A DNA stretch of 11,592 nucleotides from Promethearchaeota archaeon (GCA_048939465.1 JBHLPL010000062.1:1-11592), one strand, 5' to 3'. Positions 1 through 957 are shown, numbered from the stretch's first letter. The notes: generated from the letters alone by a model not told the origin. Made by a program: numbers and translations.

Positions 1-957
1 AGACTCCAACGTGTGGCCTGTGTTGGCAAGTATCGCCCCATCCTTCATCAACTCCATATGCTCCTTACGAATGACATTCTTGTTTCCAGTAGCAGTCAGA
101 AATATGTCTCCGATTTTCGCAGCATCTTTCATCGACATGACTCGGTAGCCGTCCATTGTAGCTCTTAATGCCTTTGTAGGATCAACTTCAGTTACAACGA
201 CATGTGAGCCCATTCCTCTAGCTCTCATTGCAGCTCCCTTGCCGCAGTGTCCATACCCTGCCACCACGAAATTCTTACCTGCAAGGAGAATACTGGTAGC
301 ACGTAAAATGCCGTCAATAGAACTCTGACCGGTGCCGTAAATATTCTTTCGGAGCCTTGGAAACTCTCCAAGACTCAATCGAAATCCCACTTCGTTGGTG
401 CATCGTTGACAGCAACCATTGGATACTTCAGTGCCCCGTCTCGTGCCATAGCTCTCAATCGAATAACTCCCGTGGTGGTCTATACGTGGATAGAACATTG
501 TTCCATCCTCTTCGCAACCACCAACAATTTGGGATAAAAGCTCGGTTCGCTTCGAGTGTACAGCGTTTACCAGATCTCCCCCGTCATCCAAAGTTATTCT
601 AGGTTTATAGTTAAGCACATCATTCACGCTTTCATAATATTCCTCAGTGCTTTCACCTCGCCAAGCATAGACATTGGTACCTTCCAGCGCCAGCGCAGCT
701 GCAACATCGTCTTGCGTTGATAATGGATTCGAAGCGCATAATGCCACATCTGCCCCGCCGGACTTCAAAGTCTGAACTAACACAGCGGTTTCTTTAGTAA
801 CGTGCAGACAGGCGGATATCCGGATTCCTCTGAGGGGTTTCTCCCTTTCGAACCTTTCCTTGATTTTCGCCAGCACTGGCATGTGATGAGTTGCCCACCG
901 AATTCTTTCCCGACCCTGATCTGCTAGAGCCATATCCTTAACTTTATATTCCTTCAA
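1..957 (-). CDS. ahcY: Adenosylhomocysteinase (SAH hydrolase), intron-containing, 3' end runs off the window. Exons: 957..510, 481..378, 345..<1 (last exon may end at 13 if a third intron exists)
   Basis: My translation from TTG at 957 (GAGGTG RBS at 970-965) gives [69 protein letters not shown]. After removing the two inserts it continues [68 protein letters not shown], all hallmark AhcY motifs. It is absent from the ORF track because no stop lies within the window. Confidence 0.97.
346..377 (-). other. 32-nt BHB intron in ahcY (intron 2)
   Basis: Minus strand: TTCG-AT^T-GAGTCTTGGA-gagtt-TCCAAGGCTC-CGAA-AG^A. Central helix TTCG/CGAA is perfect, both bulges are 3 nt and the inner stem is 10 bp. 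Excision gives TTC GAT AAT ATT TAC GGC (FDNIYG). Confidence 0.93.
482..509 (-). other. 28-nt BHB intron in ahcY (intron 1)
   Basis: Minus strand: GGTGGTT-GCGA-AG^A-GGATGGAAC-aat-GTTCTATCC-ACGT-AT^A-GACCACC. Outer exon helix 7 bp, inner helix 9 bp, central helix 3 of 4 paired (A.A mismatch). Excision gives TGC GAA GAG ACC ACC ACG GGA (CEETTTG). Confidence 0.92.

Follow-up and report, generated by a model that had tools for sequence, protein, structure and literature searches.

A predicted BHB intron between two catalytic codons of ahcY in an Odinarchaeum-related Asgard archaeon

An interrupted catalytic motif in ahcY

How can a gene that reads open from end to end lack part of the protein family to which it belongs, and could splicing of its mRNA supply the missing part? 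The ahcY gene studied here raises this question. The window is a whole contig (C118, 11,592 bp) from a 1.96-Mb assembly that is 91% complete, and its host genome falls in the same order as Odinarchaeum, including Candidatus Odinarchaeota J65_bin.29 (G004). The ahcY product is an S-adenosyl- or S-inosyl-homocysteine hydrolase, encoded on the minus strand (957..1) by a gene that the contig end cuts short at position 1. Left unspliced, it is an open frame of 319 aa within the window, in which 54 residues without family likeness (among them ...LSLGEFPR...) stand between ...GGCEE and NIYGTGQS.... Absent from this frame is a family segment of 34 residues, AdoHcyase positions 187-220 in Pfam, which is encoded in another frame at 479..378. 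This segment, exon 2 in Table 1, aligns residue for residue over its full length (1-34) with the solved archaeal SAH/SIH hydrolases 7r3a and 7r37, ending in ...FD. Removal of 28 nt (480-507) and 32 nt (346-377) restores GGCEE^TTTGV...KWDFD^NIYGTGQS, with the caret here and below marking a junction.

The unspliced frame stays open because the first two inserts, intron 1 and intron 2, add up to 60 nt (28 + 32), and for the same reason gene callers silently give a wrong read-through protein of 374 aa. Public gene calls (P0002, P0003 and P0015) are this unspliced 374-aa product, with the stop inside intron 4; existing annotation of ahcY thus hides the introns and includes the wrong 54-residue segment. 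A search of the 91%-complete assembly found no second ahcY copy.

For a comparison that makes no use of the fold, we aligned the intron-less AhcY of Ca. Odinarchaeum yellowstonii (G003; KWDFDNVYG), a member of the same order with a closed genome of 1,418,269 bp, to the host DNA by protein-to-DNA dynamic programming in which jumps of 12-123 nt were allowed. The alignment places five jumps in the host ahcY, of 28, 32, 27, 30 and 22 nt. The contig ends inside the third insert, and the gene continues on contig C24, where introns 4 (30 nt) and 5 (22 nt) and most of intron 3 lie at ~7260-7520 on the minus strand; C24 and C118 share an overlap of 77 nt. The first-pass annotation, made from the window sequence, had proposed that positions 346-377 are an intron splitting the catalytic K..FD^N motif of AhcY. 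This proposal is supported by the orthologue comparison: the 32-nt jump falls exactly between D and N, and the resulting junction matches the intron-less Odinarchaeum protein. Intron 2 thus sits between the Asp and Asn codons of the K-x3-D-N motif, and the catalytic role that had been ascribed to its Lys, Asp and Asn agrees with mutagenesis of rat SAHH at Lys-185, at Asp-189 and at Asn-190 (Takata 2002, as listed in PMC10978960).

Table 1. Features of ahcY in the window and ahcY insert loci elsewhere. Positions count from the first letter of the window.
Feature	Position	Strand	Remarks
ahcY exon 1	508..957	-	TTG start at 957; ends ...GGCEE
ahcY intron 1, 28 nt	480..507	-	same spliced product from canonical BHB register 482-509
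ahcY exon 2, 34 codons (TTTGV...KWDFD)	378..479	-	frame differs from exons 1 and 3
Central helix, exon strand TTCG	380..383	-	inside codons GAT TTC GAT
ahcY intron 2, 32 nt (predicted)	346..377	-	1 unpaired nt + 10-bp hairpin with 5-nt loop + 4-nt central-helix strand + 2 bulge nt
Inner hairpin (h')	352..376	-	arms 376-367 and 361-352, loop 366-362
Central helix, intron strand CGAA	348..351	-	
ahcY exon 3 (NIYGTGQS...ANTGH)	13..345	-	NAD-binding domain
ahcY intron 3 (27 nt), first 12 nt	1..12	-	contig ends inside intron 3
ahcY inserts at HPS^E / HPSE^V			loci L015, L028, L031
ahcY inserts at KWE^FDN			loci L030, L032
ahcY insert at ETTT^G			locus L032

Fold, conservation and splicing machinery

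In mRNA sense, intron 2 (window 377..346) is TGAGTCTTGGAGAGTTTCCAAGGCTCCGAAAG, flanked by ...GGGATTTCGAT upstream and AATATTTACGGC downstream. Its predicted spliced junction is GATTTCGAT^AATATTTAC, with ...GATTTCGAT joined to AATATTTACGGC. The exon strand TTCG (383-380) pairs with CGAA of the intron (351-348) in four Watson-Crick pairs. The 5' bulge A,T^T consists of exon bases A and T (379-378) and the first intron base T, and the 3' bulge A,G^A of intron bases A and G (347-346) and the first base of exon 3, which places the predicted cuts between 378 and 377 and between 346 and 345. The inner stem has 10 bp (nine Watson-Crick and one G.U) closed by a 5-nt loop. In the frame of exon 2, the intron opens with TGA right after TTC GAT. 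In the canonical register the outer exon helix is reduced to two A-U pairs, in place of which RNAfold shows a 3x3 internal loop with a G.U-rich helix. A perfect central helix, bulges ATT and AGA, a 10-bp inner stem, a weak outer helix and an intron starting at the TGA had been described at first pass, and our analysis, by RNAfold, register table and pair counts for the fold, reproduces each of them.

The RNAfold MFE structure is the same BHB motif, and its 46-nt core is more stable than expected by chance (z = -4.07, with none of 200 shuffles as stable). We also shuffled the insert 1,000,000 times at constant composition while the junction was held where homology fixes it; in 0.12% of the shuffled inserts, a complete central helix (4/4) arose together with an in-register inner stem of 4 bp or more, and the real stem has 10 bp. 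Canonical cuts, made after the second nucleotide of each bulge, would give GAT^AAT and hence KWDFD^NIYG in silico, a layout found in the intron-less orthologue and in the solved structures. Direct reading shows that no other boundary of intron 2 yields F-D-N, and in all species no shift is needed to reach the canonical register, in which the helix has 4 bp and the cut follows the second bulge nucleotide. What counts against splicing in this fold is the poorly closed 3' bulge, the outer helix being two A-U pairs; the fold has the relaxed BHB form reported to be accepted by EndA of the (alpha-beta)2 and epsilon2 types (PMC5829648).

A group I or group II intron and an intein were rejected, the insert being 32 nt long, not a multiple of three, and having neither a ribozyme core of hundreds of nt nor an in-frame protein-splicing domain. 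No direct repeats flank intron 2. Rfam matched no family in the window except one tRNA elsewhere, at 5588-5692 on the plus strand (55 bits), with ~30 extra nt in its variable region; ARAGORN reported no tRNA in the window.

The other four inserts are of similar build. Intron 1 interrupts the invariant EE^TTTG motif between its Glu and Thr residues, with a predicted junction of ...GCGAAGAG joined to ACCACCACG. Its central helix GCGA/ACGT has three of four pairs and an A.A mismatch; the MFE structure gives it an 8-bp outer exon helix and a 9-bp inner stem (8 and 10 by register count), and its boundaries are ambiguous over three registers because of an AG repeat. Introns 3, 4 and 5 (27, 30 and 22 nt) interrupt GH^FNVE, AAAE^GHP and HPS^EVM, and the BHB geometry of each is canonical. 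In introns 2-5, the junction that gives back the orthologue's residues is also that of the canonical BHB register; for introns 4 and 5, which are in phase 1, this register gives Glu as the orthologue does. A blastn search of the genome with the five introns found no similar copies and no repeated family, and a mobile-element origin was rejected on this result. In a short-query blastn, part of intron 5 with its flank matched contig C11 exactly over 19 nt (22897-22915; E = 1.6e-4), which may be due to chance.

All five inserts recur at these sites in the genus's two other species (G001 and G002; ~90% nucleotide identity and no gaps over the first kilobase), in one JGI metagenome contig and in one Logan contig. 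The Odinarchaeum genus (G003-G006) lacks exactly 60 nt (28 + 32) across the region of introns 1 and 2. Scanning metagenomes with peptide patterns turned up no relative of more than 79% identity; the JGI and Logan contigs came from a protein search, and all are unspliced DNA forms. Between species, indels that are not multiples of three are confined to introns 4 and 5, whose lengths differ by 1-2 nt with the downstream frame undisturbed.

Among the three species, dS is ~0.4 and dN/dS over ahcY 0.06-0.09. In the spliced frame, exon 2 shows 5-8 synonymous and 0-1 non-synonymous differences (dN/dS 0-0.06), whereas the same substitutions read in the read-through frame give 0 synonymous and 6-8 non-synonymous differences. 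This pattern indicates that exon 2 is translated in a frame that needs the removal (or skipping) of a stretch of 3n+1 nucleotides before it and of 3n+2 after it.

Intron 2 itself differs at 2-3 of its 32 sites, compared with 19-22% at third codon positions. Its five variable sites among four distinct sequences comprise two in the loop, one in a bulge, one G-C to G.U change and one U.G to A.G change, the last leaving an A.G mismatch in the stem of one species; 47 of 48 pair cells (97.9%) are paired. All four pairs of the central helix are invariant in the three aligned genomes and were read directly in the JGI contig as well. Among these 3-4 close species, no compensatory double change was seen in intron 2, and the covariation score equals that of shuffles.

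The genome encodes two EndA paralogues, of 204 aa on contig C90 and of 191 aa on contig C139. One has its closest match in the catalytic subunit of the (alpha-beta)2 enzyme from Aeropyrum pernix (3p1z_B, E = 1.5e-44) and retains the His in ...GIDHSPF.... The other aligns best with M. jannaschii EndA and has Val at the position of the His of EHS, which we take to be the catalytic His of that enzyme. These matches and residues suggest that the paralogues form one catalytic and one structural subunit. The literature links the heteromeric EndA type to relaxed BHB motifs (PMC5829648) and to cbf5 splicing (PMC2738675). RtcB is found at two loci. The copy on contig C31 (2961-5708, minus strand) lies inside an open frame of 973 aa, and its profile match is split into positions 1-57 and 45-426, ~1.4 kb apart, probably by an intein. 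The tRNA genes of this genome are heavily interrupted: the Rfam tRNA model finds 24 only, ~19 of which are longer than 85 nt, and 12 of the 15 tRNAs reported by ARAGORN have introns.

Splicing weighed against other explanations

We consider it very probable, from the homology, fold and selection data taken together, that intron 2 is an mRNA intron spliced by EndA and RtcB in the only ahcY of this host, and the ahcY mRNA almost certainly needs cutting and re-joining before a working enzyme can be made. The transcript would fold so that exon TTCG pairs with intron CGAA between two 3-nt bulges, and a heteromeric (alpha-beta)2-type EndA would cut past the second nucleotide of each bulge. RtcB would then ligate the exons and probably circularize the 32-nt intron. 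In the product ...GAT^AAT..., the catalytic Asp and Asn would be adjacent and the ribosome back in the frame of exon 3; four more introns of the same build (28, 27, 30 and 22 nt) would also be removed from this mRNA. Cleavage and ligation of intron 2 in the cell are what we infer from sequence, and it counts against splicing that each ahcY mRNA would have to lose five introns in an organism in which transcription and translation are presumed to be coupled.

The frame of exon 2 could in principle be reached by the ribosome instead, through a -1 shift at GAU_UGA that adds 11 residues or through a bypass of the hairpin like that in phage T4 gene 60. A stop codon does stand directly after the would-be take-off codon, a strong hairpin starts 1 nt later, and the selection data on exon 2 do not separate recoding from splicing. 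The site has, however, no slippery heptamer (X XXY YYZ) and no GAY landing codon before AAT, the triplet there being AAG. None of the other loci compared, 185 of the 189 in the alignment, has 11 extra residues between the catalytic Asp and Asn, and two of the 2-3 substitutions in intron 2 would be non-synonymous in the read-through frame. The other four inserts have BHB geometry in common rather than recoding signals, and the 1-2 nt by which introns 4 and 5 differ in length from species to species leave the downstream frame intact. With the likeness to gene 60 limited to a stop that immediately follows the final decoded codon and a hairpin that spans the skipped nucleotides, with no matching take-off and landing codons in ahcY, and with a geometry that fits BHB cleavage exactly, we judge recoding to be highly improbable. 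Even less credence goes to a decaying pseudogene, or to a read-through frame that encodes an altered, non-catalytic protein from which the inserts are never removed. The read-through frame is indeed open (319 aa in the window, 374 aa by gene finders), yet 54 out-of-frame codons would lack a stop by chance in an estimated ~5-10% of cases, which makes the open frame a mild coincidence. Purifying selection on exon 2 is seen only in the frame that read-through does not use, and we therefore regard a pseudogene as effectively excluded; the low gene-wide dN/dS at this level of divergence and the status of this gene as the only ahcY copy found in the assembly also stand against it.

It is further conceivable, if very unlikely, that the BHB is cut with the exons mostly left unjoined, as a regulated cleavage or decay site or as a splicing-efficiency switch that sets the AhcY level. 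In Haloferax, EndA acts on a BHB in the HVO_1309 5' UTR and expression is affected (PMC7714728), and the weak outer helix of intron 2 could make cutting conditional. Against this, strong selection on the spliced frame of a sole copy implies that the ligated product must be made, and RtcB is present; a regulatory role of cleavage would add to splicing and not replace it. Hardly any weight attaches to an assembly or sequencing artefact, or to an element removed from the genome at the DNA level. The contig does end inside intron 3, but the insert occupies the same site in five independent assemblies and shows species-specific substitutions, direct repeats are missing from its flanks, and the introns have no similar copies elsewhere in the genome. 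We thus favor EndA- and RtcB-dependent splicing of intron 2.

The best precedent for such splicing is the BHB intron in the cbf5 pre-mRNA of Crenarchaeota, namely Desulfurococcales and Sulfolobales (Watanabe 2002; Yoshinari 2006; Yokobori 2009, PMC2738675), which Schwarz 2020 (PMC7714728) describes as the sole BHB intron on record in archaeal mRNA apart from that study's own 5'-UTR case. The literature that we searched holds no report of BHB introns in Asgard mRNAs, its Asgard intron papers being concerned with tRNA genes or group II introns. Like the cbf5 intron, the predicted ahcY introns are short BHB introns in a coding sequence, occur in hosts with heteromeric EndA, are patchy among relatives and would restore frame or motif on removal. 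They differ in lying in an unrelated gene, in an Asgard lineage of the Odin-type order, and in numbering five in one gene rather than one; their splicing is also predicted from sequence. The mechanism would be that of cbf5, in a new gene and a new phylum. Asgard archaea have non-canonical and multiple introns in their tRNAs (PMC11291895; bioRxiv 10.64898/2026.10.13.758758), and these, like those of Thermoproteales, share the motif, the enzymes and the layout of 1 nt + hairpin + 4 nt + 2 nt with the ahcY introns and are of similar size. Those papers deal with tRNA introns only, whereas ahcY is an mRNA in which the exon half of the motif encodes catalytic residues. Haloferax volcanii HVO_1309 (Schwarz 2020, PMC7714728) resembles ahcY in that EndA acts on an mRNA, but there the intron sits in an untranslated leader and leaves the reading frame uninterrupted.

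Inserts beyond this gene and their significance

Alignment of the G003 AhcY covered 189 ahcY loci, drawn from relatives, species-representative genomes and metagenomes. Across these loci, the D^N site is occupied in the host genus only. Internal inserts with canonical BHB geometry occur outside the genus in just five other Asgard genomes, from distant families, and measure 27-56 nt (loci in Table 1). Two of these genomes (G017 and G037) have an insert at HPS^E that shares its phase and its CCAG/CTGG helix with host intron 5, and a third (G030) has one a codon later, at HPSE^V. The remaining two (G031 and G040) are interrupted at KWE^FDN, 6 nt upstream of the intron 2 site, with the exon strand TGGG, and G040 has a further insert at ETTT^G. 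Locus L032 also carries ~190 extra nt at the HPS^E site with no clear geometry. As a negative control, ordinary in-frame ahcY indels (54-57 nt near residue 140 and 21 nt at residue 95) showed no BHB geometry apart from one marginal match.

To look beyond ahcY we ran a census that makes no use of the motif, in which 986 Odinarchaeum proteins were aligned with jumps to the host genome DNA; it is insensitive at the 30-60% identity typical of the host-Odinarchaeum pair. Among short inserts with highly conserved residues on either side, it found some in genes for a GatA-like amidase (32 nt, DEFAI^GSSTE), aIF5B (29 nt), aEF-2 (31 nt, RG^ITI), CTP synthase (31 nt, SGI^GKG) and a DRG GTPase (24 nt), on contigs C77, C69, C68, C116 and C113. 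All break the frame but that of DRG, which is in frame. The sixth is a 27-nt in-frame insert with a stop in an amidohydrolase gene adjoining ahcY (window 3264-3290, minus strand), between ORFs 2106-3269 and 3282-3503, and it has canonical geometry with a CATG/CATG helix. This interrupted neighbor is an Amidohydro_1 gene (an MtaD/DadD-like deaminase), and its place beside AhcY suggests, by analogy, the route from SAH to S-inosylhomocysteine described for M. jannaschii (PMC10978960). All six inserts fold as helix-bulge-helix hairpins, and strictly canonical geometry is limited to some of them; for the amidase insert, homology demands 32 nt where canonical cuts would take out 34 nt, a difference that is unexplained.

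Where flank identity is low, BHB geometry was not enriched in the census (10 of 217 jumps compared with 6.6% of control windows), and most jumps there are alignment artefacts. The reverse census gave long jumps in similar numbers. Credible inserts are limited to short ones with high flank identity (at least 8/12), which numbered six forward and one reverse. This motif-free comparison supports the presence of putative mRNA introns in six further housekeeping genes of the host. A genome scan for strict geometry was uninformative at that stringency, with 50,944 matches in the genome and 50,845 in the reversed genome. An ORF-fusion filter on the scan matches was rejected as a detector (189 fusions of at least 100 codons compared with 227 at random positions) given the short exons of multi-intron genes and the frequency of shadow ORFs.

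The reverse census also turned up a 34-nt hairpin insert with a TGTA/TACA helix in G003, at locus L139 (~15,620-15,690, near 535,635). It splits an actin-like gene at PERMYS^VWIGGS, with 12/12 identities on both sides. It is possible that Odinarchaeum itself carries at least one mRNA BHB intron.

If the proposed splicing is real, an essential methyl-cycle enzyme in a close relative of the eukaryotic ancestor would need several splicing events carried out by the tRNA machinery, and a concrete question would follow for Asgard archaea, that of splicing against coupled translation. Intron 2 of ahcY would then offer a compact substrate of ~70 nt for biochemical tests. Whether endonuclease-dependent mRNA splicing is a routine step of gene expression in the Odin-type lineage and in other Asgard classes is a broader matter, and here we hold a tentative view, at somewhat less than even chances that it is. 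If it were routine, this would suggest either that the mRNA introns are ancient or that insertion into the most conserved codons has been repeated and site-biased, and it would bear on how the relatives of the eukaryotic ancestor handle introns under coupled transcription and translation.
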